Shown here: positions 8,561 to 56,492 of the stretch, in pieces
How positions within the stretch are numbered: position 1 is the first letter of the stretch
Layout: each line of letters opens with the position of its first letter
From: an uncultured Gammaproteobacteria bacterium
GTDB lineage: Bacteria; Pseudomonadota; Gammaproteobacteria; Natronospirales; REEB76
NCBI GenBank assembly: GCA_964584665.1
Contig: CAZPAO010000010.1
Location: 435 to 64,434, forward strand
Length of the DNA: 64,000 nucleotides
Direction of reading: 5' to 3'
Translations under genes and position numbers: made by a program
Notes under the pieces: model-generated
Seen by the model: only the letters and a program-made list of their open reading frames with translations
What the model was told of the DNA's origin: nothing
Databases searched by the model: none

Positions 8561-8611
8561 GTATTCCCCAAAGGTATTTCGCGGAACGCCATCAACACTT
8601 TTTCTTTCAGT

Positions 8612-8755
8612 GAAGTCGTCTCAGAAACGTCGCGAGCGAAGGTAGAGCGAGGCGCGCGACGGCGAGGAACCGGAGTGTACTTGATTAGTACATGAGGATT
8701 CCGAGCTGGTGCACAACGAAGCTATACCGAGCGCAGCAGTTTATGAGACGGCTTC
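8612..8755. repeat. ~144-bp imperfect palindromic element in the pilC-pilD spacer
   Basis: Terminal inverted repeats GAAGTCGTCTCAGAAAC (8612-8628) and the reverse complement of 8739-8755 (GAAGCCGTCTCATAAAC) match at 15/17. A central palindrome TGTAC-N7-GTACA (8676-8692) lies exactly at the element midpoint. Patchy internal arm complementarity (GGTAGAGC/GGTATAGC, GGAACC/GGAATC). Confidence 0.4.
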
Positions 8756-9968: not shown

Positions 9969-9988
9969 GGCGATATGTTCTCGTCCGG

Positions 9989-11710: not shown

Positions 11711-11955
11711 GTCCCTACCCTTGAAGAAGAGAAGAATCCCGGACACCCAGGAATGGGTATCCCCCAGGCCTTAGATAGTAGTGCGTAGAGGGTTAAATTG
11801 TCCAACGGGGACAGGGGCCTGGAGCCTTTTTGGCAGCTAAAATCCCCTCGCGCCCGGCTGTCCGGAGGTCCCGGCAGGCGGGCTCCCGGTATGGGCCCAT
11901 CGGCCCAGTACGACAGATCGTGCGGGCACGGCTACCACCTCGACGAGGAGCGGAT

Positions 11956-16298: not shown

Positions 16299-18254
16299 TC
16301 AGCGCGGATGTTCGGCGGCGGGAAGGCTGTCGATCTCATCCTGGAGTTCGGCGATGACCGGATCCAGGTGGCCGAGGTAGTTCAACCGGCGCAGGCCCTC
16401 CAGATCCTGCCGCGCCAGATCCGGATTCCCGAGACTGATGTCCATGGTCACTATGTTCTCCTGGTACTGGGCCTCGTTCGGCACCAGGGCCGCCGCCTGC
16501 ACCATGAGTTCGCGCGCCTTGCGCACGTCGTGGCTGCTGAAAGCGGTGTAGTTGCCGTAGATCACCAGGATGTTGGCGTGGGTGTCCCGTAGCGTCACGA
16601 GATAGGGGTTGGCCAGCGCCGAGTCGAAGATTGCTTGCATGTCCTTGGGGTCCACCACGCAGTTGCGCTTGTAGACGCATTCCCCCAGGGCCGCGAGGCC
16701 CTGGATATCCGAGGCCGAGAGCTTGCGGTCGCCGAGTTTCCGCGCGATGCGGGGCAGCACATCCGGGTCCACTTTGCCCTTGAGTTGCGCCTGCACCAGC
16801 ACCAGCGAGACGTCTGGGATCACGGTGGAGTGGGGCACCAGCGACGCCGCGCGCAAGGAGGTCACGGCATCGGCATACTCGTCCTTGTCGGTCATCAGCG
16901 CCAGGTTGGCGTAGGTCTGGCCCAGCATATAAGTGGCATAAGGGGACTGCGGATGGTGGCGCGCTTCGGCGGAGGCGAAATCCAGGTTGTCACGCCAGTC
17001 ATAGGCGCGCTGCCAGGTCATGGCGGCACAGAGCACGACCAGCATGCCTACCACTGCGTAGCGCAGCCGGGGAAACTGCGGTTGCGGGGTGAGGGGACAG
17101 ATGAGCGACATCAGCGCCAGCAATAGCCCTAGGTCCGGCAGGTAGCAGCGGTGCTCGTAGGCGAGTTCCAGGGGGAAGATCGTCGATTCCATGAGTTGGC
17201 CGCCCAGGAACCAGGCGAGCCCTAAGGCCACTAAGGGCAGGCGTCTGCGCAAGACGAAACAGGCGGCCGCGAGGCCCGCGAGGCCGAGGATGGAGATGAG
17301 CGTGGTGATGGGCTGCAGCAAGCCCCGCGAAGGCAGGATATCGTCGTGATAGAGCCCGAGTTCCGCCGGGTAGGGGACGAAGGTCCAGCGGATATAGAGC
17401 CATACCACCCGCGCTTCCGACAATAGGCGTTCCCGCAGGTCGTAGTCACGCCCCGAGTAGTCGAGGAAGGCGCCGTGATGGGCGAACAGCATCCAGCCGA
17501 GGCCGGCACAGCCGGGCAACAGCAGGAACAGCCCATAGAACCCTGCGATGCCGCGGTCGAAGCCGCCGTGCGCATCGCGGAAACGGAATATGAAGCACTC
17601 GATCGCAAGCGCATAGACCGGCAGCAGTGCACCGGATTCCTTGCAAAGCACCGCCACCAGCGTGGCGAGCGGGACCAGGATCCACAGCATCCAGCCCCCG
17701 CGACTGCCATCCAGGCCGTGTGTGCGCGACAGGAGGTAGGCGTTGAGCCCCAGTAGCACGAATACGGCCGACAGCGATGTCTCGCGTTGCACCACGTACA
17801 GCACCGGCATGGCGTTGAGCGGATGCAGCAGCCAGAGTGACGTGGTGAGCACTGCGAGCCAGGCGAGGGGCATCTCCGGCAACTGCGGTGCCTGCAAGCG
17901 GCGATACGCCGATAGCAACTGCATCAGCAACCACCCCATCAGCATGCCGTTCACGAGATGGATGGCCAGGTTCGTGGTCTTGAACGCCGCCGCGCCATCG
18001 GCCCCGGTGAAGTAGGCGTTGACGGCGAAGCTCAGCATGCTCACCGGCCGCATGGAGGGGCCGGCTTGGAACGAGAACATGGCATGGCTGAGGGAATCCC
18101 AGGAGAAGTCATGTATGGCGATGGCGCCGTTCTGTACCACGTTGGTGTAATCGTCGAGCGCGAAACCGCCAGTCAGCCCCGGCCAATAGACCGCCACCAC
18201 GGCCAGGCATGCCAGCAGTAGGGCCAAAGGGCGCAATGGCAGGGTCTTGTGCAT
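16299..18254 (-). CDS. GT-C-fold membrane glycosyltransferase with a C-terminal periplasmic TPR-like domain (TfpW/TMTC/PMT-like), copy 1
   Basis: 651 aa. About 10-11 TM helices in the first ~400 aa. First-loop acidic motif 'GGFALDDYTNV'. Conserved blocks 'LHPLN..VLYVVQRETSLSA', 'CKESGALLPVY' and 'LMESTIFPLELAYEHRCYLP' (DUF1736-like). The helical C-terminal ~230 aa is soluble. Confidence 0.6.
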   Translation of the reverse strand: MHKTLPLRPLALLLACLAVVAVYWPGLTGGFALDDYTNVVQNGAIAIHDFSWDSLSHAMFSFQAGPSMRPVSMLSFAVNAYFTGADGAAAFKTTNLAIHLVNGMLMGWLLMQLLSAYRRLQAPQLPEMPLAWLAVLTTSLWLLHPLNAMPVLYVVQRETSLSAVFVLLGLNAYLLSRTHGLDGSRGGWMLWILVPLATLVAVLCKESGALLPVYALAIECFIFRFRDAHGGFDRGIAGFYGLFLLLPGCAGLGWMLFAHHGAFLDYSGRDYDLRERLLSEARVVWLYIRWTFVPYPAELGLYHDDILPSRGLLQPITTLISILGLAGLAAACFVLRRRLPLVALGLAWFLGGQLMESTIFPLELAYEHRCYLPDLGLLLALMSLICPLTPQPQFPRLRYAVVGMLVVLCAAMTWQRAYDWRDNLDFASAEARHHPQSPYATYMLGQTYANLALMTDKDEYADAVTSLRAASLVPHSTVIPDVSLVLVQAQLKGKVDPDVLPRIARKLGDRKLSASDIQGLAALGECVYKRNCVVDPKDMQAIFDSALANPYLVTLRDTHANILVIYGNYTAFSSHDVRKARELMVQAAALVPNEAQYQENIVTMDISLGNPDLARQDLEGLRRLNYLGHLDPVIAELQDEIDSLPAAEHPR

Positions 18255-37646: not shown

Positions 37647-38282
37647 TCATGCCGCGAGCCAACCGCTCAGGGCCGTGACGGTCGCCGCCAGCACCAGCAT
37701 GCCTCCCACCACTTGCCCGATGCGCGCCACGGCCGCGGGATTGCGTTCGAGATGCGCGCTGACCGCGGATGCCAGCAGCGCCACGCTGCCGTAGATGGCG
37801 ACCTGACAGACGGCGCCTATGCCCCAGAGCACGGCGCCCTGTAACCACAGCGGGCCGTATGCGGGCCTGAGGAACTGGGGGATCACCGCCAGCGTGAAGA
37901 GATAGGCGTTGGCGTTGAGGAGGTTGTTGACCACGCCCTGGCGGAAGGCGACGCGCGGCGGACGGATCGCCGCATCGGGTCGCAGCCGCAGCAGCGTCGC
38001 TTTCCTGAAGATATTCACGCCGATCCAGGCGAGGTACGCGGCTCCCGCCAGCAGCAGGAGCTTGAAGGCGGCGGGGTAGAGCGTCAGGAGCACGCTCACG
38101 CCCAGCACCGCGGCGGCCATATGGAATACCGCGCCGCTGACGATGCCCGCCACCGCGGCGAGGCCGCCGCGCCGCCCGCCCGTGAGGGCGCTCGCGAGCA
38201 CATAGGCCATGTCCATGCCCGGCAGCAGGATCACGCCGAACACAAGCAAGAAATAAACCCACAGCATCGCGGACTGGCTCAT
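37647..38282 (-). CDS. LysE/RhtB family amino-acid exporter (copy 1)
   Basis: 211 aa with six TM helices and 'PGMDMAYVL', 'FRQGVVNNLLNANAYLF', 'PQFL'. The ATG at 38282 (MSQSAML) is preferred over the longer ORF. Confidence 0.85.
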   Translation of the reverse strand: MSQSAMLWVYFLLVFGVILLPGMDMAYVLASALTGGRRGGLAAVAGIVSGAVFHMAAAVLGVSVLLTLYPAAFKLLLLAGAAYLAWIGVNIFRKATLLRLRPDAAIRPPRVAFRQGVVNNLLNANAYLFTLAVIPQFLRPAYGPLWLQGAVLWGIGAVCQVAIYGSVALLASAVSAHLERNPAAVARIGQVVGGMLVLAATVTALSGWLAA

Positions 38283-38440
38283 GCGGTCTCCAAAAAATGG
38301 ATCTTTTGTCCTCTGGCGGTGTTGCGGCCGGCCTCGCAATCCTCACGTACTGGAAAGTACGCTCCGGTATGCTCGGCCATCCGCGCCTAGCCAGAGAACA
38401 AAATCTCTCATTTTTGAGGCGATGTTTGTAGAGGTTTTAT

Positions 38441-39076
38441 TTAAACACCGCGCCAGCCGTCCACGGCGGTGAACACCGCCACCAGCACGAGCATCGCGCC
38501 CACCGCGCGGCTCACGGTCACGCCGGAAGCCGGGTTGCCTTCGAGCCAGCTGCGCACGCTGCCGGCCGCATAGGCGAGTGGCCCATATACCCCCGCCATG
38601 CTGGCGAGGATGATGAGCCACATGACGATGCCCTGGATCCACAGCGGACCGTATTCCGGCCGCAGGAACTGCGGGAACACTGCCAGCATGAAGAGATAGG
38701 CCTTGGGGTTGAGCAGGCAGGTGAGCACGCCCTGGCGGAAGGTGGCCCAGGCGGAGCGCTTGCGGCCTTCCGGATGCAGGTGGAAGGCGGAAGCGCTCCT
38801 CAGTATCGAGAAGCCGATCCAGGCGATGTAGACGGCACCCGCCAGCAGCATGAAGCGGAACGCAGCGGGATAGAGCTTCAGCAGCACGCTGATGCCGAGC
38901 ACGCCGGCGATCACGTGGCAGGTGCCGCCGGCCGCCACCCCCGCCAGTGCCATGAAGCCGGACTTGCGCCCGCCCGCGAGCGCGCTGCCGAGGATGTAGG
39001 CCATGTCCAGGCCCGGCAGCAGCATGATGCCGAGCACGAACACGAAGAAGAGCCAGAGATGGCCGTAGTCGCTCAT
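38441..39076 (-). CDS. LysE/RhtB family amino-acid exporter (copy 2)
   Basis: 211 aa, roughly half identical by eye to copy 1 ('PGLDMAYIL', 'FRQGVLTCLLNPKAYLF', 'PQFLRPEYGPLW'). Confidence 0.85.
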   Translation of the reverse strand: MSDYGHLWLFFVFVLGIMLLPGLDMAYILGSALAGGRKSGFMALAGVAAGGTCHVIAGVLGISVLLKLYPAAFRFMLLAGAVYIAWIGFSILRSASAFHLHPEGRKRSAWATFRQGVLTCLLNPKAYLFMLAVFPQFLRPEYGPLWIQGIVMWLIILASMAGVYGPLAYAAGSVRSWLEGNPASGVTVSRAVGAMLVLVAVFTAVDGWRGV

Positions 39077-44270: not shown

Positions 44271-44298
44271 AGCCGCTCCGGCATCAGCCGGAGCGGCT
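44271..44298. terminator. Bidirectional hairpin between convergent genes (overlaps the argR stop)
   Basis: 12-bp stem AGCCGCTCCGGC/GCCGGAGCGGCT with an ATCA loop. Confidence 0.45.
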
Positions 44299-44697
44299 CT
44301 CCAGGATCCCGCGCACCGTCTCCACGGCCTCGCGCATCTTCTTCTCCGGCGTCACGGCGATGAACACCGTGTCGTCACCCGCAAGCGTACCCACCACGCC
44401 GTCGATGGCGTGCTCGTCCAGCAGCACCGCCAGGGCCTGGGCGTAGCCGGGGCGCGTCTTGATGATCACCAGGTTCGGCGGAGCCGACGACACGGCATAG
44501 GCGGGGAGTTCCGTGGGCATGGGCTCCACCCGCTGATAGCGGCCCGCGAGCTTCTGTATCCCCAGCTTGTTCAGGTGCCGGGACAGGGTCGGCTGCGTGA
44601 CCTTGTGGCCTTCCTTCTTGAGCAGGTCCAGGAACACCGCCTGGTCCGTCACTTCCCGCTCTTCCGTCAGTCTCAGGATCGCTTCATCCAGCGTCAT
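44284..44697 (-). CDS. argR: Arginine repressor ArgR
   Basis: 137 aa. Winged-helix 'VTQPTLSRHLNKLG'. C-terminal oligomerisation/arginine-binding block 'TRPGYAQALAVLLD...GTLAGDDTVF' matches E. coli 'TSPGAAQLIARLLD...GTIAGDDTIF'. Divergent from the arg operon. Confidence 0.85.
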   Translation of the reverse strand: MTLDEAILRLTEEREVTDQAVFLDLLKKEGHKVTQPTLSRHLNKLGIQKLAGRYQRVEPMPTELPAYAVSSAPPNLVIIKTRPGYAQALAVLLDEHAIDGVVGTLAGDDTVFIAVTPEKKMREAVETVRGILESRSG

Positions 44698-44812: not shown

Positions 44813-45982
44813 ATGCATATTTTTAAGGATTCCCCGCAAAACGAGCCCCTGCCGGCGCTCCTGCCCACCTATGCGCCTTATCCGTTCCCGCTGCTCTCGG
44901 GCGAAGGGGAGCGGGTGCGGGACGATGCGGGCCGCGACTATCTCGATTTCTACGGCGGCCATTGCGTGGCCGCCACCGGCCACAGCCACCCGAAGGTGGC
45001 TGCCGCCGTGGCCACCCAGGCGCGTGAACTCATCTTCTATTCCGCCGCCGCGCGCCTGCCGGTGCGGGATGCGGCGGCAGAGGCCCTGGTGGCCTTCGCC
45101 CCCGCGCATATCGCATCGGTGTTCTTCTGCAACTCCGGTGCCGAGGCCAACGAGAGCGCCTTGAAGATCGCGGCGCAGCTCACGGGCCGCGCGCGCTACA
45201 CCGCGTTCGCCGGTTCCTTCCATGGCCGCAGCCTCCTGGCCCTCTCGGTCACGGACTCACCCTCCCTGAAGAAGGGGCTCGAACCTCTGCTGGCCCCGGT
45301 GGACTTCCTGCCGTTCGGCGATCTCGCCGCGCTTGCAGGCGCGGACTTCTCCAAGAGCGCAGCGGTGATCGTCGAGCCTATCCAGTCCATGGCCGGCGTC
45401 AGCACCGCATCCCGCGAGTGGTTCCAAGAGCTCTCCGAGAAGTGTCATCGTCAGGGTGCGCTGCTCATCTTCGATGAGGTGCAGACCGGCATGGGGCGCT
45501 TAGGGACGCCCTTCGCTGCGCAGTTCTACGGCATCGAGCCGGACCTCATGACCCTGGCCAAGGGCATCGCCTCCGGCGTGCCCATGGGTGCCCTGCTCAT
45601 GACGGCGGAAGTGGCGCGCGCGCTCAAGTCCGGCGACCTTGGCAGCACCTTCGGCGGCGGGCCGCTCGCCTGCGCGGCACTGCTCGCGACGCTCGAAGTC
45701 ATCCGCGAAGAGAAACTCATGGACAACGCCGCTGCCCAGGCGGCGCGCATCCGCAAGGTCCTCGCGGGCAGCTTCGTCACGGAAGTGCGGGGCGAAGGCC
45801 TGTTGCTGGGCCTGAAGTGCGGCGGGCACGCCTCATCTCTCAAGAAGGAGTTGCAGGAGTCCCGCATCCTGGTGGGCGGCTCATCGGATCCGGAAGTACT
45901 GCGCCTCATGCCGCCCCTCAGCGTCAGCGCCAGCGCGGTGGAGGCCTTGCTCTCGGTCATCCTCCGGTCCGGCACGAAGTGA
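44813..45982 (+). CDS. argD: Class-III aminotransferase, N-acyl-ornithine aminotransferase (ArgD-like)
   Basis: 389 aa with 'DFYGGHCVAATGHSHP', 'FDEVQTGMGRLG' and 'LAKGIASGVPMGA' (the PLP lysine region). First gene of the arg operon. Confidence 0.85.
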   Translation: MHIFKDSPQNEPLPALLPTYAPYPFPLLSGEGERVRDDAGRDYLDFYGGHCVAATGHSHPKVAAAVATQARELIFYSAAARLPVRDAAAEALVAFAPAHIASVFFCNSGAEANESALKIAAQLTGRARYTAFAGSFHGRSLLALSVTDSPSLKKGLEPLLAPVDFLPFGDLAALAGADFSKSAAVIVEPIQSMAGVSTASREWFQELSEKCHRQGALLIFDEVQTGMGRLGTPFAAQFYGIEPDLMTLAKGIASGVPMGALLMTAEVARALKSGDLGSTFGGGPLACAALLATLEVIREEKLMDNAAAQAARIRKVLAGSFVTEVRGEGLLLGLKCGGHASSLKKELQESRILVGGSSDPEVLRLMPPLSVSASAVEALLSVILRSGTK

Positions 45983-46983
45983 AGCACTTCACCCACATCG
46001 CCGACCTCGGCGTCCCGGGCGTGCAGTCGGTGCTGGACCAGGCGTTGCACTGGAAGCGCTACGCGCCCGGCGCGCACCTCGCGGGGAAGCTGCTCGGCAT
46101 GGTGTTCTTCAATCCCTCGCTGCGCACCCGCGCCTCCTTCGAGGCGGCGATGCTCCGGGGCGGCGGCAACGCCCTGGTGCTGGACGTGGGTAACGGCGTG
46201 TGGAAGCTGGAGGACCGGACCGGTGCCATCATGGATGGCGATCGGCCGGAACACATCAAGGAAGCCATCCCGGTGCTCGGCCGCTACGCGGACGCACTGG
46301 CGGTGCGCACCTTCGGTGCGCTCCTGGACGACGACGCGGACGCGGCGGACCCGGTGCTGAACGCCTTCCGCGCGCTGGCGGGTGTGCCGGTGATCAGCAT
46401 GGAGTCGGCACGGGAGCATCCCTGCCAGGGTCTCGCGGACATGCTCACCCTGCGGGAGAACTTCGAAGATACGCACCGTCTGCCGGTGACCCTCACCTGG
46501 GCGCCGCACATCAAGCCGCTGCCGAAGGCCGTGCCCCACTCGTTCCTGTTGAGCGCCGCCGCTGCGGGCTGCGAAGTCCGCGTCACCCATCCGCCGGGCT
46601 TCGAGCTGCATCCTGGCGTGCTGGCGGAAGCGCAGGATTACGCCCGCGAGAGTGGTGGCTCCGTGACGGTGACGCATGACCGCAAGGCGGCTCTCGCGGG
46701 CAGCCGTGCGGTATACGCCAAGGCCTGGGGACCGGACACGCATCAGGTGAGTGCTGCAGACGCGCCCGCGCGTATCGCCGCCCACGAGGACTGGCTGGTG
46801 GATGCCGCGGTTCTGGCCGCCGCCCAGGATCCCGTCTTCCTCCACTGCCTGCCGGTCAGGCGCAACGTGGAGGTGGCGGACGCGGTGTTGGACGGCAAAG
46901 CCAGCCGCGTCATCGATGAAGCCGAGAACCGTTTCCACGTGCAGCGGGTGCTCCTGCACCGCTTGCTCAACCCGGATGCCTGA
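45979..46983 (+). CDS. argF': N-acyl-L-ornithine carbamoyltransferase (ArgF' type; acetyl or succinyl specificity unresolved)
   Basis: 'VFFNPSLRTRASFE' replaces the OTCase 'STRTR' context. 'MDGDRPEHIKE...LGRYADALAVRTF', 'HPCQGLAD' and 'HCLPVRRNVEV' resemble Xanthomonas/Bacteroides ArgF' rather than classical ArgF/ArgI. GTG start in a GTGA overlap with the argD stop. Confidence 0.8.
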   Translation: MKHFTHIADLGVPGVQSVLDQALHWKRYAPGAHLAGKLLGMVFFNPSLRTRASFEAAMLRGGGNALVLDVGNGVWKLEDRTGAIMDGDRPEHIKEAIPVLGRYADALAVRTFGALLDDDADAADPVLNAFRALAGVPVISMESAREHPCQGLADMLTLRENFEDTHRLPVTLTWAPHIKPLPKAVPHSFLLSAAAAGCEVRVTHPPGFELHPGVLAEAQDYARESGGSVTVTHDRKAALAGSRAVYAKAWGPDTHQVSAADAPARIAAHEDWLVDAAVLAAAQDPVFLHCLPVRRNVEVADAVLDGKASRVIDEAENRFHVQRVLLHRLLNPDA

Positions 46984-46999: not shown

Positions 47000-47920
47000 A
47001 TGTCCGTAGCCCCCGACAGTTATGCCACCCTGCGTTCCGCCGCCCAGTACGTGCGCGCCTTCCGCGGCAAGACCTTCGTCTTCAAGCTGGGGGGCGAGGT
47101 GCTGGAGGACCCGAAGATCCGCCGCGCCGTGTGCGAGCAGCTGGCGGTGCTGTGGAGCTTCTCCATCAAGCTGGTGCTGGTGCACGGCGGCGGCACGGGC
47201 ATAGACGCCCTCTGCGAGAGCCTGCACCTGCCGGTGGAGAAGGTGGCGGGAAGGCGCGTGACCACCGCCAAGGTGCTGGATGCCGCCAAGATGGTGTTGG
47301 CGGGGACGCTGCACACCGACCTCCTGGCGGACCTGCGCGCCGCGGGCCTGCCGGTGGCGGGCATCAGCGGGGTGGATGGCGGGCTGCTCACGGCCCACAA
47401 GCGCCAGCCGGTGCAGATGAAGGATGACCTGGGCCAAGTCCAGTTCGTGGACTTCGGCCTGGTGGGGGACATCGACAAGGTGAACCCGACGCTCTTGCAG
47501 CATCTCCTGGCCGGCGAATACGTGCCGGTGGTGACGCCGCTGTCCGCCAACGACAAGGGCGAGGTGTTCAACACCAACGCTGACACGGTGGCGGCCGAGG
47601 TGGCGGCGGCGCTCGGCGCCGAGAAGCTCTTCTTCCTGTTGAAGGTGCCGGGGCTGTTGGAGGATCTCACCCGTCCCACCAGCCTCGTGCCCTATGCGAC
47701 GCTGGAAGGCCTCGAAGGCCTGGAGGGGTCCGGCAAGATCAGCGGCGGCATGCGGCCCAAGCTCGCGGCGGTGCGCCGCGCGCTCTCGGGCGGTGTCGCC
47801 AGCGCGCACCTGGTGAGCGGCATGCTGCCGGATGCGGTGCTGACGGAGGTCTTCACCAACCAGGGCAGCGGCACCATGGTGGTGGCGCGGGAAGCCAAGG
47901 CGAAGGAACAGGCGGCGTGA
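47000..47920 (+). CDS. argB: N-acetylglutamate kinase (kinase domain only)
   Basis: 'FRGKTFVFKLGGEVL', 'VLVHGGG', 'NTNADTVAAEVA'. 306 aa with no fused acetyltransferase domain. GAGGAGAG RBS. Confidence 0.92.
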   Translation: MSVAPDSYATLRSAAQYVRAFRGKTFVFKLGGEVLEDPKIRRAVCEQLAVLWSFSIKLVLVHGGGTGIDALCESLHLPVEKVAGRRVTTAKVLDAAKMVLAGTLHTDLLADLRAAGLPVAGISGVDGGLLTAHKRQPVQMKDDLGQVQFVDFGLVGDIDKVNPTLLQHLLAGEYVPVVTPLSANDKGEVFNTNADTVAAEVAAALGAEKLFFLLKVPGLLEDLTRPTSLVPYATLEGLEGLEGSGKISGGMRPKLAAVRRALSGGVASAHLVSGMLPDAVLTEVFTNQGSGTMVVAREAKAKEQAA

Positions 47921-49284
47921 GCGCCCAACTCTGGTCCAAGGGCCTGCCCCTGGATGAGGCCATCCACCGTTTCACGGTGGGCGACGATCCCGAGCTGGAC
48001 GTGCAACTGCTGGTGCACGATGCTCAGGGCAGCGCGGCCCATGCGCGCATGCTCGCGAATTCCGGTCTCATGCCGGCGCAGGATGCGGCAGCCCTCGTGA
48101 CAGCGCTCGCGGGCATCAGCCGCAAGGCGCGGGCAGGGCAGATACGCATCGCCCGGGAGCAGGAGGATGCCCATACCGCCATCGAAGCCATCCTTACGGC
48201 GGAGTTGGGGGATGCGGGTAAGCGCATCCATCTCGGGCGCTCGCGCAACGACCAGGTGATCCTGGCGCTGCGGCTCTACATGCGCGAAGCCTTGTTGGAT
48301 ATCGCAGGACAGACCGCGGCGCTGGCGCGTAACTTCGCGGTCTTCGCCCGCAGCCATGCCCATGAACCCATGCCGGGCTATACCCACCTGCGCCGGGCCA
48401 TGCCCTCCAGTTTCGGTCTATGGGGCGCCGCCTTCGCCGCGGGCCTCGCGGAAGAACTGCAGGCCCTGCAAGCCCTGTATGCGCGCCTGGATCGTTGCCC
48501 CCTCGGGGCCGCCGCCGGTTTCGGTGTTCCGCTGCCCATCGAGCGCGAGTACACCGCGCAGTTGCTTGGGTTCTCCTCGGTGCAGGTCTCGCCGGTGGAC
48601 GTGCAGAACTCCCGGGGCCGCCACGAACTCGCTTTCCTGAACGAGTTGGCCTCCATCGGTCTAGTGATGGAGAAGTTCCTCTGGGACGTCTCCCTCTATT
48701 CCATGCCGGAGTTCGGTTTCCTGAAGCTGCCGGATGCCTTCACCACCGGTTCCTCGATCATGCCCCAGAAGCGAAACCCGGACGTGGTGGAGCTGGCGCG
48801 GGGCCGCTGCCGCGAACTGCGCGGCTACGCTGCCATGCTGCAGGAGCTGGCCGCGGGCCTGCCTTCCAACTATCACCGGGACTTCCAGTTGCTGAAGAAG
48901 CCGCTGTTCGGGGCGGTGGCCGCGGCCCGGGGTTGGCTGAATGTGCTCATCGCGCTCGTACCCGCGCTGGAAGTGGATGCTGCCAAGGCCGCCGCCGCCT
49001 GCAGCGACGACACCTATGCTGCGCACCAGGCTTACGTCCTGGCCCAGGGCGGCATGCCGTTCCGGGATGCCTACCAGCAGGTGGCGAAGCAGTTGCAGAG
49101 CGGGACATTCAAACCGGACCGGGGCGCCTTGACCGCAACGCATCTCGGCGGCGCCGGCAATCTCGGGCTGGACCGGATCGAAGCGGACATCGCCGGCGTC
49201 GAGCAGTGGACGGCGCGCACCCGCGCCGCGCTCGCCCAGGCTGAGAAGAACCTATGGAACCCTCAAGCGGAAGGTGAGCAGTGA
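47917..49284 (+). CDS. argH: Argininosuccinate lyase
   Basis: 'GRSRNDQV', 'PGYTHLRRAMPSSFG' and 'GSSIMPQKRNPDVVE', the fumarate-lyase signature. GTGA overlap with the argB stop. Confidence 0.92.
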   Translation: MSAQLWSKGLPLDEAIHRFTVGDDPELDVQLLVHDAQGSAAHARMLANSGLMPAQDAAALVTALAGISRKARAGQIRIAREQEDAHTAIEAILTAELGDAGKRIHLGRSRNDQVILALRLYMREALLDIAGQTAALARNFAVFARSHAHEPMPGYTHLRRAMPSSFGLWGAAFAAGLAEELQALQALYARLDRCPLGAAAGFGVPLPIEREYTAQLLGFSSVQVSPVDVQNSRGRHELAFLNELASIGLVMEKFLWDVSLYSMPEFGFLKLPDAFTTGSSIMPQKRNPDVVELARGRCRELRGYAAMLQELAAGLPSNYHRDFQLLKKPLFGAVAAARGWLNVLIALVPALEVDAAKAAAACSDDTYAAHQAYVLAQGGMPFRDAYQQVAKQLQSGTFKPDRGALTATHLGGAGNLGLDRIEADIAGVEQWTARTRAALAQAEKNLWNPQAEGEQ

Positions 49285-50480
49285 TGAAGAAGCATGTGGT
49301 GCTGGCGTACTCCGGCGGCCTGGACACGTCCTTCTGCGTGGTGCACCTGAAAGAGCAGGGCTACGAGGTCACCACCGTCACCGTGAATACCGGTGGGTTC
49401 AGCCCGGCTGAACTGAAGCGCATCGAGGAACTCAGCCCCAAGCTCGGTGCCAAGGCGCACCGCACCCTGGATGCCCGGAGCGAGCTGTTCCAGCGTTACC
49501 TGCGCTACCTCGTGTACGGCAACGTACTGCGCGGCAACCTCTATCCACTCAGTGTCTCGGCGGAGCGGGTCTGCCAGGCGGTGAGCGTGGTGGCGGTGGC
49601 GAAGGAGCTGAAGGCGGACGCGGTGGCCCATGGTTCCACCGGCGCCGGCAACGACCAGATACGCTTCGACGTGGCCTTCCGCGCCCTGGCGCCGGAGCTG
49701 GAGCTCATCACACCTATCCGTGCATTGGAATTGAGCCGCGCGCAGGAGATGGAGTTCCTGAAGCAGCACGGCTTCGAGTTCCCGGCCAAGACCGTGCAGT
49801 ACTCGGTGAACGAGGGCATGTGGGGCACCTCCGTGGGCGGCCGCGAGACGCTCGATTCCTGGAGCCAGCTGCCGGAAGCCGCCTTCCCCGGGGGCGAACT
49901 CGATGCGGCGGGCCTGAAGCCCCGCAAGCTGACCCTGCGCTTCGAGCAGGGCGTGCCGCTCGCCGTGGACGGCAAGGGCATGGACCCGGTGACGCTCATC
50001 GGTGAGTTGAACGCGCTGGGCCACAAGTACGGCATCGGCCGCGGCGTGCATCTCGGCGACACCATCCTCGGGATCAAGGGGCGCGTCGGTTTCGAAGCGC
50101 CGGCGGCCCATCTCCTCATCGGCAGCCACCGGGAACTGGAGAAGCTCACCCTCACGGGCAAGCAGCTCTTCTGGAAGGACACCCTCGGCAACCTCTACGG
50201 TCAGTTGCTGCACGAGGGGCATTTCTTCGATCCTCTGGCGCGCGACCTGGAGGCCTTCCTGGAATCGAGCCAGGCCCAGGTCACCGGCGAGGTACAGCTC
50301 ACGCTCTACCCCCGCGCCTTCGGCGTGGACGGCGTGCGCTCGCCCCATTCGCTCATGGATGCCAAGGTGGCGAGCTACGGCGAGGCCAACCGCCTCTGGA
50401 CCGGCGCCGAGGCCGCGGGCTTCGCCAAGCTCTATGGCGTGCAGCAGATACTCGCACTCCAGGCGGGAGGTCAGTCGTGA
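49284..50480 (+). CDS. argG: Argininosuccinate synthase
   Basis: 'KKHVVLAYSGGLDTS', 'VAHGSTGAGNDQIRF'. TGATG overlap with the argH stop. Confidence 0.95.
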   Translation: MKKHVVLAYSGGLDTSFCVVHLKEQGYEVTTVTVNTGGFSPAELKRIEELSPKLGAKAHRTLDARSELFQRYLRYLVYGNVLRGNLYPLSVSAERVCQAVSVVAVAKELKADAVAHGSTGAGNDQIRFDVAFRALAPELELITPIRALELSRAQEMEFLKQHGFEFPAKTVQYSVNEGMWGTSVGGRETLDSWSQLPEAAFPGGELDAAGLKPRKLTLRFEQGVPLAVDGKGMDPVTLIGELNALGHKYGIGRGVHLGDTILGIKGRVGFEAPAAHLLIGSHRELEKLTLTGKQLFWKDTLGNLYGQLLHEGHFFDPLARDLEAFLESSQAQVTGEVQLTLYPRAFGVDGVRSPHSLMDAKVASYGEANRLWTGAEAAGFAKLYGVQQILALQAGGQS

Positions 50481-51532
50481 GGATAAACGCGGACAAGATC
50501 GCTTCCGTCACCCGTAACCTGAAGCTGGACCGCAGTCTCACGCTCTCGCCCACCATCCGCGCCGAGCATGGTGCGGTGGTGGCGGGGCGGATACTGGGGG
50601 ATAAATCCGGCTACAACCAGCTCGAGGACGTGCACGGCCGCATGAACGTGATCCATGGCGACGACGTGATCGTCGGCGCCCTGGGGCACCGCAACGCGCT
50701 CCATGGCTACGAGGGTGTGCTGCCGAAGCAGGTGGTGCAGGGCCAGGTGCTGCATGTGCTGAACCTGGGAGGCGTCATCGGCGAGTGCGTCTCCCACAAC
50801 CCGGAAGTGGGTTCGCCCTTCGAGTTCGAGGTGCTGGGCCAGGTGCTGATCTATCCCGAGTTCCAGTCCCGCGAGGGCCAGGCCGCCAACATCCGCATGG
50901 GTGCCTTGCAGCAGGAGGGCCGCAAGCTCGACTGCAAGGTCATCTACGTGGCGGGCACCTGCATGAACGCCGGCAAGACCGCCGCCGCCTGCGCCCTGGT
51001 GCGCCGGCTCTCCCAGGCCGGTTATCGCGTGGGCGGCGCCAAGCTCACGGGTGTCTCGCTCATGCGCGACACCTTGAGCATGCGGGACTACGGCGCCGAG
51101 GTGACCTACGACTTCACCGACGCGGGCATCGTCTGCACCGGCCAGGACAGTGCCAACCAGGTGGCCCGCACGCTGTTCGCACAACTCTCGGGCCGCGGCC
51201 TGGACGTGATCGTGGCGGAGACCGGCGACGGTATCATGGGCGATTACGGCGTGCAGACCATCCTCGCGGATCCGGAGCTGAAGGCCCTCACCGCCGGCTT
51301 CGTGTTCTGCGCCAACGATCCCGTCGGCGTCGCGGGCGGCGTGCGCCACCTGCAGCGCGAATACGGCATCGATGCCGACGTGGTCACGGGCCCCGCCACC
51401 GACAACAACGTGGGCGTGCGCTTCGTGGAGCGGGAGGTGGGCATGACCGCCATCAACGCCCGCACCCATTCCAAGGCCTTCGGCGAGCACCTGCTGAAGC
51501 TGCTCACGGAGCGGGGCATCCGCAGGCAATGA
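50477..51532 (+). CDS. Uncharacterised 351-aa protein with a BioD/CobQ/DUF1611-type deviant P-loop, embedded in the arg operon
   Basis: GTG start in a GTGA overlap with the argG stop. GGAGG RBS at 50466-50470. The stop is in an ATGA overlap with the argC start. C-terminal half: 'VIYVAGTCMNAGKTAAACALVRRLSQAGYRVGGAKLTG' (G-x5-GKT spacing as in BioD 'GTDTxVGKT' and DUF1611 'GTDCxxGK'). The N-terminal ~150 aa is beta-rich with no motif I recognise. Confidence 0.8.
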   Translation: MRINADKIASVTRNLKLDRSLTLSPTIRAEHGAVVAGRILGDKSGYNQLEDVHGRMNVIHGDDVIVGALGHRNALHGYEGVLPKQVVQGQVLHVLNLGGVIGECVSHNPEVGSPFEFEVLGQVLIYPEFQSREGQAANIRMGALQQEGRKLDCKVIYVAGTCMNAGKTAAACALVRRLSQAGYRVGGAKLTGVSLMRDTLSMRDYGAEVTYDFTDAGIVCTGQDSANQVARTLFAQLSGRGLDVIVAETGDGIMGDYGVQTILADPELKALTAGFVFCANDPVGVAGGVRHLQREYGIDADVVTGPATDNNVGVRFVEREVGMTAINARTHSKAFGEHLLKLLTERGIRRQ

Positions 51533-52590
51533 GCGGCCTTCCTGTCTATATCCTCGGCGGCTCGGGTTACGGCGGCGGAGAGTTGCTGCGGCTCCTGTCC
51601 GCACATCCCAAGGTCGGTGTGCTGCGCGCCGTGTCCCGCAAGCAGGCCGGCGAGCCTTTCTGGAAGATGCACCCGAACCTGCGTGGCGTAGTGCAAGGAA
51701 GCTTCGATGGGGAGCCGGATTGGAGCGCCCTCGCGGATGCCGCGCACCCGGTGGTGTTCGCCGCCATGCCCCATTTCGAACTAGCCCAGCAGCTGCCGGC
51801 GCTGGAAGCGGCATGGATGGCGGTGGGCATCGCCGACAGACTCACGCTCATAGATCTCTCGGGGGATTTCCGGCTGGATGATGCGGCGGCCTTCGCCGCC
51901 GCCTACGGTAAGCCTCACCCCTATCCTCAAGGCCTGGGGAGTTTCGTCTACGGCCTGCCGGAGTGGCGCCGGCAGAAGCTCGCCGGCGCACGGCGCATCG
52001 CCAGCCCCGGCTGCTTCGCCACTGCCATCCAGTTGGCGCTGCTGCCTTTCGCCGGGATGGAAGACTTGGGTTTCATCGCCGTGAGCGCCGCCACGGGCTC
52101 CTCCGGTTCCGGTACCTCACCGGGGGAGGGGACGCACCATCCGACCCGCGCCCAGGATTTCCGCGCCTACAAGGTGCTGACGCATCAGCATGAGGCTGAG
52201 ATCACGCGACTCCTAGATGCGGAAGGCAGCTCCAATTATTCACTGGGCTTCGTCCCGCATTCGGCGCCCATGGTGCGTGGCATCTACGCCACGGTCCAGT
52301 TCCGTGCCCCGGGGCTGGATGCGACGGCCATCGGCAAGCACATCGAAGAGACATACGAGGATGCGCCTTTCCTGCGGCTGCTCGGCAGTGAGGCCCCGCG
52401 CGTCGGTGCCGTGGCGGGTTCCAACTTCTGTGACGTCGGTTGGCAGGTGAAGGACGGGACGGTGGCGGTGATGACCGCCCTCGACAACTTGGTGAAGGGC
52501 ATGGCGGGCCAGGCCATCCAGAACATGAACCTCGCCCTGGGATTCCCGGAGACCGAAGGCCTCCTGCATGCCGGGACTTACCCAGGCTGA
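51529..52590 (+). CDS. argC: N-acetyl-gamma-glutamyl-phosphate reductase
   Basis: 'VYILGGSGYGGGELLRLL', active-site 'IASPGCFATAIQLAL', 'DNLVKGMAGQAIQNMN'. 353 aa from the ATG at 51529. The longer track ORF is a 5' artefact. Confidence 0.93.
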   Translation: MSGLPVYILGGSGYGGGELLRLLSAHPKVGVLRAVSRKQAGEPFWKMHPNLRGVVQGSFDGEPDWSALADAAHPVVFAAMPHFELAQQLPALEAAWMAVGIADRLTLIDLSGDFRLDDAAAFAAAYGKPHPYPQGLGSFVYGLPEWRRQKLAGARRIASPGCFATAIQLALLPFAGMEDLGFIAVSAATGSSGSGTSPGEGTHHPTRAQDFRAYKVLTHQHEAEITRLLDAEGSSNYSLGFVPHSAPMVRGIYATVQFRAPGLDATAIGKHIEETYEDAPFLRLLGSEAPRVGAVAGSNFCDVGWQVKDGTVAVMTALDNLVKGMAGQAIQNMNLALGFPETEGLLHAGTYPG

Positions 52591-52743: not shown

Positions 52744-54543
52744 GTGAAGGATGCCCCATTAAGTCCCGCTGAAGAACACTTCCGCATCGTAGTGGAAGAG
52801 TCGCCCATCGCCATGGTCATGGTGAACGAGGCTGGTGTCATCACCCTGATCAACTCCCAGGCTGAGAAGCTCTTCGGTTATTCTCGCCAGGAGCTGCTCG
52901 GCCAGCCCATCGAGATACTGGTGCCGGAGCGCGTGCATTGGGCACATCCCGCGCTGCGCAAGAATTACTTTCAAGATCCGCAGCCTCGTGCCATGGGCGC
53001 GGGGCGGCGTCTGTCTGGCCGGCGTAAAGACGGCACGGAGATGCCGGTGGAGATAGGGCTCAACCCCATCATCACCAAAGAAAGCCGCTCCGTGCTGGCT
53101 TCCATCATCGACGTCACGGAAGGCAGGCTCGATGAAGCGCGTTTCCACGCCATGCTCGAGGGCGCACCCACGGCCATGGTGATGGTGAGCGAGAGCGGCA
53201 TCATCACCCTCATCAATTCCCAGACCGAGAAACTGTTCGGTTACCGGCCCGAGGAACTGCTGGGCCAGCCTCTGGAGGTGCTGGTGCCGGTGCGGTTCCG
53301 TGACCGACTTCCGGCCATGCGCGCCGCATTCTTCGAGGATCCCGATACCCGTACCACGAGCGCGGGCGTGGAGCTGCATGGTTTGCACCGGGATGGCACG
53401 GAGATCCCGGTGGAGATAGGGCTCAACCCCATCACCACCCGCAAGGGCCGCTTCGTGATGATCTCCGTCGTCAACATCTCAGACCGTAAGCGCGCCGAGG
53501 ATCTCTTCCAGGCCATGGTCGAGGGCGCGCCCACCGTCATGATAATGATCAACGAGGCGGGCATCATAACCCTGGTCAATTCCCAGACCGAGAAACTCTT
53601 CGGCTATCGCCGTGAAGAGCTGCTGGGGAAGCCTGCTGAGATCCTGGTGCCTATGCGGTTCCGTGGCCATCACGCCGCTATGCGGGCGAACTTCCAGCAG
53701 GATCCGAATATGCGTTCCATCGGCATCGAACAGGATATGTACGGCCTGCGCCGGAATGGGACGGAGATGCCGGTGGAGATCAACATCAACCCCGTCGTCA
53801 CCCAGGGAGGCCACTTCGTGATGGCTTCCATCATCGATATCAGCGAGCGCAGGCAGGCGGAATTGCGAGTACAGGCCTATGCGGAGGAGTTGCGGCAGAT
53901 GTCGCAGCGCCTGCTGGAGGCCCAGGAGATGGAACGCCGTGGTATCGCCCGGGAGCTGCACGATGAGGTGGGTCAGTCCCTGACCGCGGCCAGCATCAAC
54001 CTCGGAGACCTGGAGAAGCAGGCGGCGGGTGGACCATTGGCGGCGCAACTTGCCGAGGTCTCCGCCATCATCGCGCGCTTATTGCAGCAGATCCGTCAGC
54101 TGTCCTTGGACCTGCATCCCACGGTGCTGGATGACCTGGGGATCGCGCCGGGCTTCCGATGGCTGATACGTGAGCGCGCCGCCCGCAGCGGCTTGGATGT
54201 GACGTTGAGCGTGGCGGATGATCTTCCGCGCTTCAGCGCCATGGTCGAGAACACGCTGTTCCGGGTGTTCCAGGAATCGCTATCCAACGTCCTGCGCCAT
54301 GCGCAGGCGAAGAAGCTGGCCGTGGAATTGCGTTTTGAAGCGGACAGCCTGAAATTGACCATCCGCGACGACGGACGTGGTTTCGACCCGGCAGCTGCCC
54401 ACAAACACGCCCTGGAAGGCACGAGTCTAGGGGTCCTCGGCATGGGAGAACGGGTGCGGCTTGCGGGTGGCACCATCGACTTCAAGTCGGCGATAGGCCA
54501 GGGCACGGAGATACGCGTGACCCTGCCCGCGATAGCGCGCTGA
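52744..54543 (+). CDS. Cytoplasmic sensor histidine kinase: three tandem PAS domains + HisKA_3 + HATPase (NarL-class partner type)
   Basis: Three near-repeat PAS modules ('VITLINSQAEKLFGYSRQELLGQP', 'IITLINSQTEKLFGYRPEELLGQP', 'IITLVNSQTEKLFGYRREELLGKP'). H-box 'IARELHDEVGQSL'. ATPase 'RDDGRGFD...GVLGMGERV'. No TM segment. Confidence 0.85.
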   Translation: MKDAPLSPAEEHFRIVVEESPIAMVMVNEAGVITLINSQAEKLFGYSRQELLGQPIEILVPERVHWAHPALRKNYFQDPQPRAMGAGRRLSGRRKDGTEMPVEIGLNPIITKESRSVLASIIDVTEGRLDEARFHAMLEGAPTAMVMVSESGIITLINSQTEKLFGYRPEELLGQPLEVLVPVRFRDRLPAMRAAFFEDPDTRTTSAGVELHGLHRDGTEIPVEIGLNPITTRKGRFVMISVVNISDRKRAEDLFQAMVEGAPTVMIMINEAGIITLVNSQTEKLFGYRREELLGKPAEILVPMRFRGHHAAMRANFQQDPNMRSIGIEQDMYGLRRNGTEMPVEININPVVTQGGHFVMASIIDISERRQAELRVQAYAEELRQMSQRLLEAQEMERRGIARELHDEVGQSLTAASINLGDLEKQAAGGPLAAQLAEVSAIIARLLQQIRQLSLDLHPTVLDDLGIAPGFRWLIRERAARSGLDVTLSVADDLPRFSAMVENTLFRVFQESLSNVLRHAQAKKLAVELRFEADSLKLTIRDDGRGFDPAAAHKHALEGTSLGVLGMGERVRLAGGTIDFKSAIGQGTEIRVTLPAIAR

Positions 54544-54864
54544 CACACCGATGAGTGCTCCCGCAGTGCCCGTCTTTTGCATCCCGTGTTGCCGGCAGGA
54601 TATGTAACCTCGATGGGTGTGCTCCCGAGGCCATCATCGACTGTTTTGGCCGTTCACTGAATGACCGACCTGCGGTGATTGCCAGACTGCAAACCTATGT
54701 TGTCTGGCGCACATACCGATATGGCAACTTGGTGGATACTTCGGGTATCCGTCAGGGCGCCATGCCTTCCCTGATCAGTCCGGATCTTTGAGTCCAATCC
54801 TGCGAACCTTCACCCGTATGATCCGGTTCCAAGGCGATCCCAACCCAATGACAGGAAGTCACAG

Positions 54865-56028
54865 GTGGCTATCGGCGATCCAGGTCCAGAAGTCATCAGT
54901 CACGTCGACGCTCTCAAAAATGCCGAGACACATCTGGCGCAGATGGAGGTCAGGTATCGCGGGCTGCTGGAGGCTGCTCCGGATGCGATGGTGGTGGTCA
55001 ACCAGGCCGGTGAGATCGTCCTGCTGAATCTGCAGACTGAAAAACAGTTCGGCTATCAGCGTGATGAACTGCTGGGGCAGAAGGTCAAGGCCATCATACC
55101 GGAGGGGTTCGCCGAACGGCTGCTCGCTGACGGCAGCCGCTCCGCGGAGGAGGCCCTGGCGCAGCATATCGGTACCGGCATCGAGCTTTACGGGCGGCGC
55201 AAGGACGGCAGCGATTTCCCGATCGAGATCATGTTGAGCCCGTTGAAGAGCGCCGAGGGGGTTCTGGTGACGGCCGCGATCCGCGACATCAGCGTGCGTA
55301 AGACCGCTGAGGCTAATCTTCTGCAGAAAGTGGTGGAGTTGAACCGCTCGAACGAGGAGCTGGGGCAATTCGCCTATATGGCCTCCCACGATCTGCAGGA
55401 ACCGTTGCGGATGGTATCCAGTTATACGGAGCTCCTGTCCAGGCGGTACAAAGGGAAGCTGGATGCCGAAGCCGATGAATTCATCGCATTTGCCGTCGAT
55501 GGGGCCAACCGGATGCAGCGGTTGATCAGGGATCTTCTGGTCTATTCCCGCGTCGGGACCGCTGAGATGGATGTGCTCGACATCTCGAGCGAAGCAGCGC
55601 TGGAGCAGGCGCTCATCAACCTGCGCGTCGCCATCCAGGAGAGCGGTGCGCTGGTGACGCACGGTCCATTGCCCAAGGTCATGGCGGACGAGATACAACT
55701 GATCCAGCTATTCCAGAACCTCATCGGCAATGCCATCAAGTATCAAAGTCACGGAGTGCCCCGGGCACACATCTCCGCGATCAAGGATGGTGTGAAGAGA
55801 TGGGTGTTTTCGGTACGGGACAATGGTTTGGGGATAGATTCGCAATATTTCGAGAGGATATTCGGCATGTTCCAGCGCCTCCACAAACGTGAAGATTTCG
55901 CGGGCACCGGCGTTGGGTTGGCCATCTGCAAGAAGATCGTAGAGCGGCACGGGGGCGACATCTGGGTCGAGTCACAACTCGGTACAGGCTCGACATTCCA
56001 TTTCGCCCTGGTTGGGAAGGAGTACTGA
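54865..56028 (+). CDS. Cytoplasmic sensor histidine kinase: one PAS + HisKA + HATPase
   Basis: PAS 'IVLLNLQTEKQFGYQRDELLGQK...GRRKDGSDFPIEI'. H-box 'ASHDLQEPLRM'. N and G boxes 'NLIGNAIKY', 'RDNGLGID', 'GTGVGLAICKKIV'. GTG start at 54865; the exact start is uncertain. Confidence 0.85.
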   Translation: MAIGDPGPEVISHVDALKNAETHLAQMEVRYRGLLEAAPDAMVVVNQAGEIVLLNLQTEKQFGYQRDELLGQKVKAIIPEGFAERLLADGSRSAEEALAQHIGTGIELYGRRKDGSDFPIEIMLSPLKSAEGVLVTAAIRDISVRKTAEANLLQKVVELNRSNEELGQFAYMASHDLQEPLRMVSSYTELLSRRYKGKLDAEADEFIAFAVDGANRMQRLIRDLLVYSRVGTAEMDVLDISSEAALEQALINLRVAIQESGALVTHGPLPKVMADEIQLIQLFQNLIGNAIKYQSHGVPRAHISAIKDGVKRWVFSVRDNGLGIDSQYFERIFGMFQRLHKREDFAGTGVGLAICKKIVERHGGDIWVESQLGTGSTFHFALVGKEY

Positions 56029-56030
56029 CC

Positions 56031-56492
56031 ATGAAGACTCTCGGCGGGAAGCCGGCACACATCGATGTCCTGCTGGTCGAAGATAGCCCTGGCGACGTCA
56101 GGCTGACTCAGGAAGTCTTCCGCGAGGCCAATAGATCCATCCATCTGCATGTAGTCGTCGATGGTATAGAGGCCATGGCATTCCTGAGGCACGAGGGCGT
56201 CCACGCCCACGCCCCACGTCCGGATATGATCCTGTTGGATCTGAACCTCCCCAAGATGGATGGCCGCGAGGTCCTGGCCGTCATCAAGGAAGACGACGGC
56301 TTAAAAAGCATCCCGACGGTCATCCTGACCACATCCGAGTCTGAAGTCGATATCGTGAAAAGCTATCAATTGCACGCGAACAGCTATCTCAACAAGCCTG
56401 TGCAATTGGATGCCTTCGAGAATCTCGTGAAGAGCATAAATGAATTCTGGCTGGTCAACGTCAAGCTGCCCAAGCACAGCCGTGGTGAGTGA
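56031..56492 (+). CDS. Single-domain response regulator (Rcp1/CheY-like receiver)
   Basis: 'DVLLVEDSPGDVRL', phospho-acceptor 'PDMILLDLNLPKMDG', 'ILTTS', 'NSYLNKP'. It starts 3 nt after the kinase stop. Confidence 0.9.
   Translation: MKTLGGKPAHIDVLLVEDSPGDVRLTQEVFREANRSIHLHVVVDGIEAMAFLRHEGVHAHAPRPDMILLDLNLPKMDGREVLAVIKEDDGLKSIPTVILTTSESEVDIVKSYQLHANSYLNKPVQLDAFENLVKSINEFWLVNVKLPKHSRGE

Follow-up and report, generated by a model that had tools for sequence, protein, structure and literature searches.

A stretch of 64,000 nucleotides from an uncultured gammaproteobacterium (contig CAZPAO010000010.1 of assembly GCA_964584665.1; hereafter the window, at its full length) carries an arginine operon in which a protein of 351 residues, here called X, is encoded between argG and argC. 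X probably makes N-succinyl- (or N-acyl-) glutamate, and would thus be the missing first enzyme of a succinyl variant of arginine biosynthesis. For this predicted role we draw on features that were observed directly, namely the anatomy and synteny of the operon, the succinylornithine carbamoyltransferase (SOTCase) signature of the accompanying ArgF', the co-occurrence of X with a deacylase, the fusion of X to a kinase, and the fold and conserved residues of X; from them we infer the reaction and the acyl donor. That such a protein N-acylates glutamate was concluded independently in the GapMind preprint, and is hence not new; the preprint predicts that ACG33_RS14135 (A0A127FCT3) and its homologues are N-succinylglutamate synthases, and GapMind now includes this prediction (bioRxiv 10.1101/2024.10.14.618325). 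X is very probably a further member of this predicted family.

Synteny of X and the signature of its ArgF' partner

Eighty genome loci encoding proteins 62-96% identical to X were fetched (Gammaproteobacteria metagenome-assembled genomes, Holophagae/Geothrix, Myxococcus and Hyalangium), and the arginine proteins of the window were mapped onto each. X lies between argG and argC in 80 of 80 loci, wherever the contig reaches. The linkage to arginine genes, which a sequence-only reading of the window had noticed in this one operon, extends to relatives at 28-41% identity. A marine relative 41% identical to X has the order argR-X-argC-argD-argF'-argB, and in a 34%-identical relative X is followed by argC. 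The most distant of the three, at 28% (locus L089, 5761-11032), has a class I/II aminotransferase gene followed by X, argC and argB; an argD-like gene is encoded on the other strand, and argF', argG and argH are absent. As judged from its gene content, this minimal module is the set for the first four steps, from glutamate to N-acylornithine; it may serve an ornithine-only pathway or another N-acyl-amino-acid pathway.

In 42 of the 80 loci, a gene for an M20 deacylase of the ArgE/DapE family, about 355 residues long, separates argB from argH. The 42 are made up of every Holophagae, Geothrix and Myxococcota locus in which the argB/argH junction is covered, together with the more distant Gammaproteobacteria; the operons of the window's clade (L001-L030) are without the M20 gene, and it is the L031-L080 side of the comparison that carries it. 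In these 42 loci every step but the N-acylation of glutamate has a gene and X is the sole unassigned protein, and X is therefore favoured for the first step.

In one lineage X also occurs fused to a kinase. In a protein of 626 residues (P0210), a complete X domain precedes an amino-acid-kinase domain that scores best as argB, and the fusion is found on four contigs from four JGI samples (L081, 7887-9881, and L082-L084); in L081 the match to X begins about 110 nucleotides upstream of the called start. An arginase gene (TIGR01229, 230 bits) divergently adjoins the fusion. By analogy, the arrangement mirrors that of classical ArgA and of the bifunctional ArgA/B, in which an acyltransferase is joined to a kinase domain. 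Another apparent fusion, P0198 (687 residues, with X and ArgC domains), was rejected, as it contains long stretches of low complexity that are rich in Ser, Arg and Ala and look out of frame; an assembly error or a frameshift where the stop and start overlap probably produced it. In a single case (L092, 119-3061), a homologue 29.5% identical to X divergently adjoins the genes for two CoA-transferase subunits (PF01144), a possible, weak hint toward a CoA-thioester donor.

The acyl group is indicated by ArgF'. When aligned to the acetylornithine carbamoyltransferase (AOTCase) of X. campestris, whose numbering was verified by counting and against mutant PDB entries, the ArgF' of the window has Pro in place of E92 and of N185, and Glu in place of K302. 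AOTCases carry E/N/K at positions 92/185/302, and SOTCases A/S/P/V/Q at the first, P at the second and V/I/E at the third (PMC4581275). The best PDB match of the window protein is the E92P mutant, 3L04. All 51 of the X-linked ArgF' proteins scored have the combination A/P/Q-P-E (Ala at position 92 in 32 of them, Pro in 18 and Gln in one) and none has E-N-K; the ArgF' of the 41%-identical marine locus has P-P-V. An acetyl pathway, with the window ArgF' as an AOTCase, was rejected on the three discriminator residues, despite the name N-acetylornithine carbamoyltransferase carried by the NCBIfam model NF003384. Misannotation of such ArgF' proteins as acetylornithine carbamoyltransferases is probably systematic. 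Because ArgF' carries the SOTCase signature, the pathway most likely runs via N-succinylated intermediates, with succinyl, in place of acetyl, as the probable acyl group. In the SOTCase of B. fragilis, the residues that bind the succinyl moiety are H176, R178 and R278. N-succinylated arginine intermediates are established in Bacteroides, where the first enzyme is the GNAT protein BT3761 (PMC7311316, PMC8121099).

Family, conserved residues and fold of X

The X family is large, and is widespread in soil and freshwater bacteria. In an index of 5.8 billion proteins, homologues of X form more than 7000 clusters at 90% identity, named only "hypothetical" or "DUF1611 domain-containing", and an exhaustive profile search gave 1752 family representatives at 50% identity, of which 268 reach E<=1e-30. 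Among 25 members from Gammaproteobacteria, Acidobacteriota and Myxococcota the mean column identity is 73%, and long invariant motifs include GALGHRNALHGYEG (residues 67-80 of X, nucleotides 50675-50716, in the N-terminal domain), GTCMNAGKT (residues 160-168), KLTG, DFTD, AETGDG, CANDPVG and GPATDN; residues 181-192 of X read AGYRVGGAKLTG. In an alignment of 65 diverse members (27-66% identity) the invariant columns are G166, K167, K189 and E248 only; S10, G32, E50, R72, T168, D198, D215 and D281 are conserved in at least 90% of them, and C104, C162 and C278 are invariant among close relatives of X only. On the DNA, the Walker A segment G160-T168 corresponds to nucleotides 50954-50980, K189 to 51041-51043, E248 to 51218-51220 and D281 to 51317-51319. 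By this pattern of conservation X looks like an enzyme, under strong constraint.

An AF2 model of X made with the family alignment (predicted local distance difference test, pLDDT, 90.6) is all-beta over residues 1 to about 135 and an alpha/beta P-loop fold from about residue 150 to residue 351. In a Foldseek search of the PDB only the C-terminal domain was matched, by FtsY/Ffh, BioD, MeaB and HypB with probability 1.0 (template modelling scores of about 0.54-0.58 per target for BioD and HypB), and ParA/MinD-type proteins were also among the matches. The N-terminal domain, modelled alone (pLDDT 87), gave no significant Foldseek match in the PDB (best E 0.63). A profile of the family, when compared with the PDB, found BioD best (3FGN, E 1.3e-4) and then FtsY. 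The hidden Markov model (HMM) alignment puts K189 of X on K37 of BioD and the P-loop of X on G14-K15-T16 of BioD. In BioD, phosphoryl transfer and the binding of Mg2+ fall to the P-loop residues, K37 and E115; as aligned, three of the four invariant residues of X coincide with residues that have this function. With its deviant Walker A (G160-x5-G166-K-T), a Lys after strand 2 (K189) and a Walker-B-like Glu (E248), X falls into the SIMIBI fold class.

Moreover, X could not be placed in a curated family. Nothing in Pfam or NCBIfam was matched above the curated cut-off, and the best matches were P-loop fragments (DUF1611_C, MobB and BioD); GNAT, AAK-GNAT, ArgJ and M20 domains were absent from X by the same two collections. 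The match to DUF1611_C (PF07755) reaches 20.8 bits against a cut-off of 25 and covers residues 148-186 of X and positions 7-45 of the 201 in the profile. No match to DUF1611_N (PF17396) was seen in X or in family members at E<=0.01. The DgcN structure 7XRJ was not recovered at E<=10 by sequence or by profile and is absent from the top 50 Foldseek matches in the PDB. Membership of X in DUF1611, with DgcN, was rejected on these grounds: a sub-threshold match limited to the P-loop, a different N-terminal domain, and the failure to recover 7XRJ. Among the 65 family members, weak Pfam matches were to MobB (31), CbiA (24), DUF1611_C (20) and AAA_26 (7). The family thus appears, from profiles and model, as a separate and so far unmodelled one of the BioD-like/SIMIBI class. 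The sequence-only reading had described X as unlike any canonical arginine enzyme, with a deviant G-x5-GKT Walker A in its C-terminal half and a beta domain at its N-terminus, and on each of these counts the searches and the model agree with it. Its placement of X in a BioD/CobQ/DUF1611 branch of P-loop proteins survives in part: Foldseek and the profile support the BioD-like/SIMIBI class, and the DUF1611 part falls with the 20.8-bit score and the absence of DUF1611_N.

By profile and by fold, BioD (PF13500) and FtsY are the two solved proteins nearest to X, and BioD shares with it the P-loop, the Lys after strand 2 and the Walker-B-like Glu. X differs from BioD in its extra N-terminal beta domain of 135 residues and in its arginine, not biotin, context, and the dethiobiotin synthetase model TIGR00347 gives X 17.6 bits, far under its cut-off of 83.3. 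DgcN (PF17396 plus PF07755; 7XRJ) likewise has a C-terminal alpha/beta domain of the P-loop type, with G-x5-GKT as its loop. DgcN is classed as an acetyl-CoA:D-glutamate N-acetyltransferase, EC 2.3.1.312 (PMC11747546), and the likeness would extend to glutamate as the substrate and to N-acylation of its alpha-amino group, as proposed for X. However, X stays under the PF07755 cut-off over 39 residues and has an all-beta N-terminal domain instead of the Rossmann-like DUF1611_N; its context is arginine anabolism, not D-Glu catabolism, and its substrates would be L-Glu and probably a succinyl donor.

The closest parallel to X is ACG33_RS14135. According to the preprint, this is a hypothetical protein in the arg cluster of Steroidobacter denitrificans, an arginine prototroph that grows in minimal medium and has neither ArgA nor ArgE; its homologues are virtually always in arg operons, sometimes beside argE, and never co-occur with ArgA homologues; and the ArgF' proteins linked to the family have A, P, S or V at position 92, and glutamine in two cases (bioRxiv 10.1101/2024.10.14.618325). 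X resembles it in being a hypothetical protein encoded in a gammaproteobacterial arg cluster with neither argA nor argE, and the two families share homologues in arg operons, some beside argE, and a succinyl-type ArgF' that includes the rare glutamine. Both are remote relatives of DgcN, and the functional conclusion is the same. From these matching descriptions, it is very probable that X belongs to the ACG33_RS14135 family. The Steroidobacter reference protein was not found among the 120 best matches, the 80 loci or the cluster members; because it is not among the 120 best matches, its identity to X is probably below about 63%. The preprint relies on a weak Foldseek similarity of the family to DgcN (7XRJ; E 1.4e-7, rmsd 5.6 A; bioRxiv 10.1101/2024.10.14.618325), whereas 7XRJ is not among the 50 best PDB matches of our model. 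To the preprint's account of ACG33_RS14135, the present analysis adds the fusion to a kinase, an N-terminal domain with no structural match and invariant residues like those of BioD. The GapMind 2020 supplements hold nothing on Myxococcus or Geothrix, and a literature search on DUF1611 with arginine, on DgcN and on D-glutamate N-acetyltransferase gave nothing useful.

The predicted reaction and its alternatives

In the pathway that we propose, X would N-acylate L-glutamate to N-succinyl-L-glutamate, which ArgB, ArgC and ArgD would convert to N-succinylornithine and ArgF', as a succinylornithine carbamoyltransferase, to N-succinylcitrulline. A desuccinylase would then free citrulline, a part that the in-operon M20 enzyme could play in most lineages and for which the clade of the window has no assigned gene, and ArgG and ArgH would complete arginine. 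Within X, the BioD-like P-loop domain would bind the nucleotide part of the acyl donor or of the energy source, and the N-terminal all-beta domain, with the conserved S10, E50 and R72, would most likely form the pocket for glutamate and succinate. As to the donor, transfer from succinyl-CoA, for which DgcN, also a P-loop protein, would be the precedent, is somewhat preferred to an ATP-dependent ligation of succinate with glutamate. The reaction and the pathway position proposed for X are those of the BT3761/Cabys_1732-type GNAT synthase of Bacteroidota, which is also encoded in an arg operon with a SOTCase-type ArgF' (PMC7311316, PMC8121099). However, the fold of X is unrelated to that of this GNAT and of classical ArgA and ArgJ, and X would represent a non-orthologous displacement.

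Several considerations weigh against this assignment. DgcN is the sole characterised acyltransferase of the fold class, X resembles it weakly, and the N-terminal domains of the two differ. P-loop proteins of the class to which X belongs are usually nucleoside triphosphate (NTP)-dependent kinases/ligases or G-protein chaperones, not acyltransferases. The function of the X family stands as a prediction, the succinyl assignment is drawn from the signature residues of ArgF', and the absence of argA, argJ and GNAT genes has the scanned ORFs of the 64-kb window as its scope.

The ATP-dependent route would lead to the same product and is contained in the functional assignment made above. X would be a succinate:L-glutamate ligase: the carboxylate of succinate would be phosphorylated to succinyl phosphate, the alpha-amine of glutamate would attack it, and ADP and Pi would be released. 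C-N ligation via an acyl phosphate is the chemistry of BioD, CobB/CobQ and CTP synthase, and the only four columns invariant in the 65 members, with K189 and the P-loop lying on their BioD counterparts, are those with which BioD-type enzymes form an acyl or carbamoyl phosphate on the way to a C-N bond. The closest solved relatives by profile are BioD and FtsY, not DgcN, the closest folds are FtsY and BioD, and BioD is no more distant from the family than DUF1611 is. The ligase would also be a functional analogue of ArgX/LysX, through which ATP-driven protection of the glutamate amino group is known to exist (PMC4490483). Yet DgcN, the only characterised enzyme of the fold class that N-acylates glutamate, is classed as an acetyl-CoA transferase, and DUF1611 proteins presumably share the P-loop residues, so that their conservation does not discriminate between the two chemistries. 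To our knowledge, the ArgA analogues that make free N-acylglutamate all use acyl-CoA or acyl-ornithine, which counts against a ligase, and the CoA-transferase genes beside one distant homologue point weakly the same way. We regard ligation as possible, but as the less probable chemistry. About as tentative is the idea of a new enzyme class founded by X, which as an ATP-dependent succinate:L-glutamate ligase would join a BioD-type acyl-phosphate P-loop domain to an N-terminal beta domain without a counterpart among solved structures; stretching this further, X or a partner may also remove or recycle the succinyl group in lineages without ArgE.

The sequence-only reading had proposed that X replaces one of the two steps for which the operon lacks a gene, the first or the last, or that it covers both as an ArgJ-like enzyme. 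The first step is favoured, by the 42 loci with an M20 gene, the fusion to an ArgB-like kinase and the L089 module; the last step is not. If X were to remove the succinyl group from N-succinylcitrulline, or to pass it in ArgJ-like fashion from succinylcitrulline or succinylornithine on to glutamate, at least in lineages with no argE in the operon, one could understand why the operons of loci L001-L030, like the 64-kb window as a whole, are without an M20 gene, and why S. denitrificans, according to the preprint, has no recognisable ArgE genome-wide (bioRxiv 10.1101/2024.10.14.618325). But in the 42 loci X shares the operon with an ArgE/DapE-type deacylase, and X is about 65% identical and has the same invariant residues with or without it, so a different function is unlikely. 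Furthermore, nothing in the P-loop fold or among the conserved residues resembles an amidohydrolase or an Ntn-type ArgJ, X is fused to the kinase of step two, and the L089 module has no carbamoyltransferase and hence no acylcitrulline to deacylate. A role in the last step is thus highly improbable, and dual function, as in ArgJ, has no positive support, with the in-operon deacylase arguing against it in most lineages; in the clade of the window, which has no argE in the operon, it retains a small probability. It is improbable, too, that X is an accessory SIMIBI NTPase, that is, a metal-loading or protecting chaperone of the MeaB/HypB/UreG type, or a regulatory or scaffolding subunit of ArgB/ArgC. 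The Foldseek matches to MeaB/ArgK-like, HypB and ParA/MinD-type proteins and the weak MobB and CbiA matches in Pfam are in line with such a role, but X has neither an NKxD-type guanine motif nor a family-wide Cys/His metal motif, is found whether or not the operon encodes the M20 metalloenzyme, and has in its N-terminal domain strictly conserved polar residues such as small-molecule sites typically have. An accessory function would, moreover, leave prototrophic hosts without a gene for the first step.

Synthesis of N-succinylglutamate by X remains the reading that we prefer. The protection of the glutamate amino group in arginine synthesis has been revised repeatedly, with ArgA, bifunctional ArgJ, Arg(A) fusions, short GNATs, LysW/ArgX and the succinyl intermediates of Bacteroidota. 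If our assignment is correct, the X family is a further, structurally unrelated solution to this problem, and the succinyl-type pathway extends well beyond Bacteroidota. The Prokaryotic Genome Annotation Pipeline (PGAP) names X either a "hypothetical" or a "DUF1611 domain-containing" protein; for the accompanying ArgF', NCBIfam gives acetylornithine carbamoyltransferase. Since these names miss both X and the specificity of ArgF', automated reconstructions would score the hosts as arginine auxotrophs or assign the wrong intermediates.

Operon anatomy and other genes of the window

The features of the operon are listed in the table. The open reading frame (ORF) of X was confirmed from the ORF list and the raw sequence, and its translational coupling on both sides and its GGAGG, as first read from the letters, are where they had been placed. 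At the GTGA junction, the GTG of X (50477-50479) shares bases with the TGA of argG (50478-50480), and at the ATGA junction, the ATG of argC (51529-51531) shares bases with the TGA of X (51530-51532). From argD through argC, five of the six junctions are overlaps of 4 nucleotides, the others being argD/argF' (45979-45982, GTGA), argB/argH (47917-47920) and argH/argG (49281-49284). Homologue alignments begin at residue 1 of X, and the GTG start is therefore correct. The G+C content at third codon positions (GC3) of X is 0.91, against 0.65 for G+C overall, and the flanking genes are similar. The position of argR is kept in most related loci.

Features of the arginine operon, with positions in the window
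Feature	Coordinates	Strand	Basis
argR, arginine repressor, divergent from the operon	44284..44697	-	Pfam Arg_repressor + Arg_repressor_C
argD-type N-acylornithine aminotransferase (class III)	44813..45982	+	PF00202 308 bits; TIGR00707 351 bits, under equivalog cut-off
argF', knotted N-acylornithine carbamoyltransferase with SOTCase signature; GTG start overlapping argD stop (GTGA)	45979..46983	+	NF003384 415 bits
argB, N-acylglutamate kinase	47000..47920	+	TIGR00761 206 bits, cut-off 151
argH, argininosuccinate lyase, 455 residues, without fused Arg(A) extension	47917..49284	+	TIGR00838 293 bits
argG, argininosuccinate synthase	49281..50480	+	TIGR00032 317 bits
GGAGG ribosome-binding site of X, within the end of argG, 6 nucleotides before the start	50466..50470	+	Raw sequence
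X, predicted N-succinyl-L-glutamate synthase (non-GNAT, P-loop), 351 residues	50477..51532	+	Family, synteny, model, match to preprint
X, N-terminal all-beta domain, about residues 1-135	50477..50881	+	AF2 models, conservation
X, C-terminal BioD-like/SIMIBI P-loop domain, about residues 150-351	50924..51529	+	Foldseek, HMM alignment to BioD
argC; ATG in ATGA overlap with X stop	51529..52590	+	TIGR01850 333 bits

A scan of 38 further ORFs of the window with GC3 support turned up no argA, argJ, argE or GNAT gene; a few ORFs, 52744-54543, 54865-56028 and 56031-56492 among them, lay outside the scan. The M20 gene of the related operons had no tblastn match in the 64-kb window, and a search of the window for extra kinase domains of the ArgB/ArgA type found none.

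Directly downstream of argC is an ORF of 599 residues (52744-54543) with three tandem repeats and a histidine-kinase-like C-terminus, followed by a second kinase-like ORF (54865-56028) and a receiver-like ORF of 153 residues (56031-56492), all as read from the translations; as far as checked, these ORFs (52744-56492) are not conserved beside the operon in other loci. Two tandem genes for LysE-type translocators, of the basic amino-acid exporter family (37647-38339 and 38441-39076, both on the minus strand), are found some 5 kb upstream of the arg operon. Elsewhere in the window, two adjacent paralogues of 651 and 652 residues (16299-18254 and 18338-20296, both on the minus strand) are 37% identical, with hydrophobic N-termini and no match in Pfam. 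They lie directly downstream of a type IV pilin gene (20377-20841), near pilR/pilS (21038-24132) and pilB/C/D (7703-11746), and may be pilin-modifying membrane proteins.

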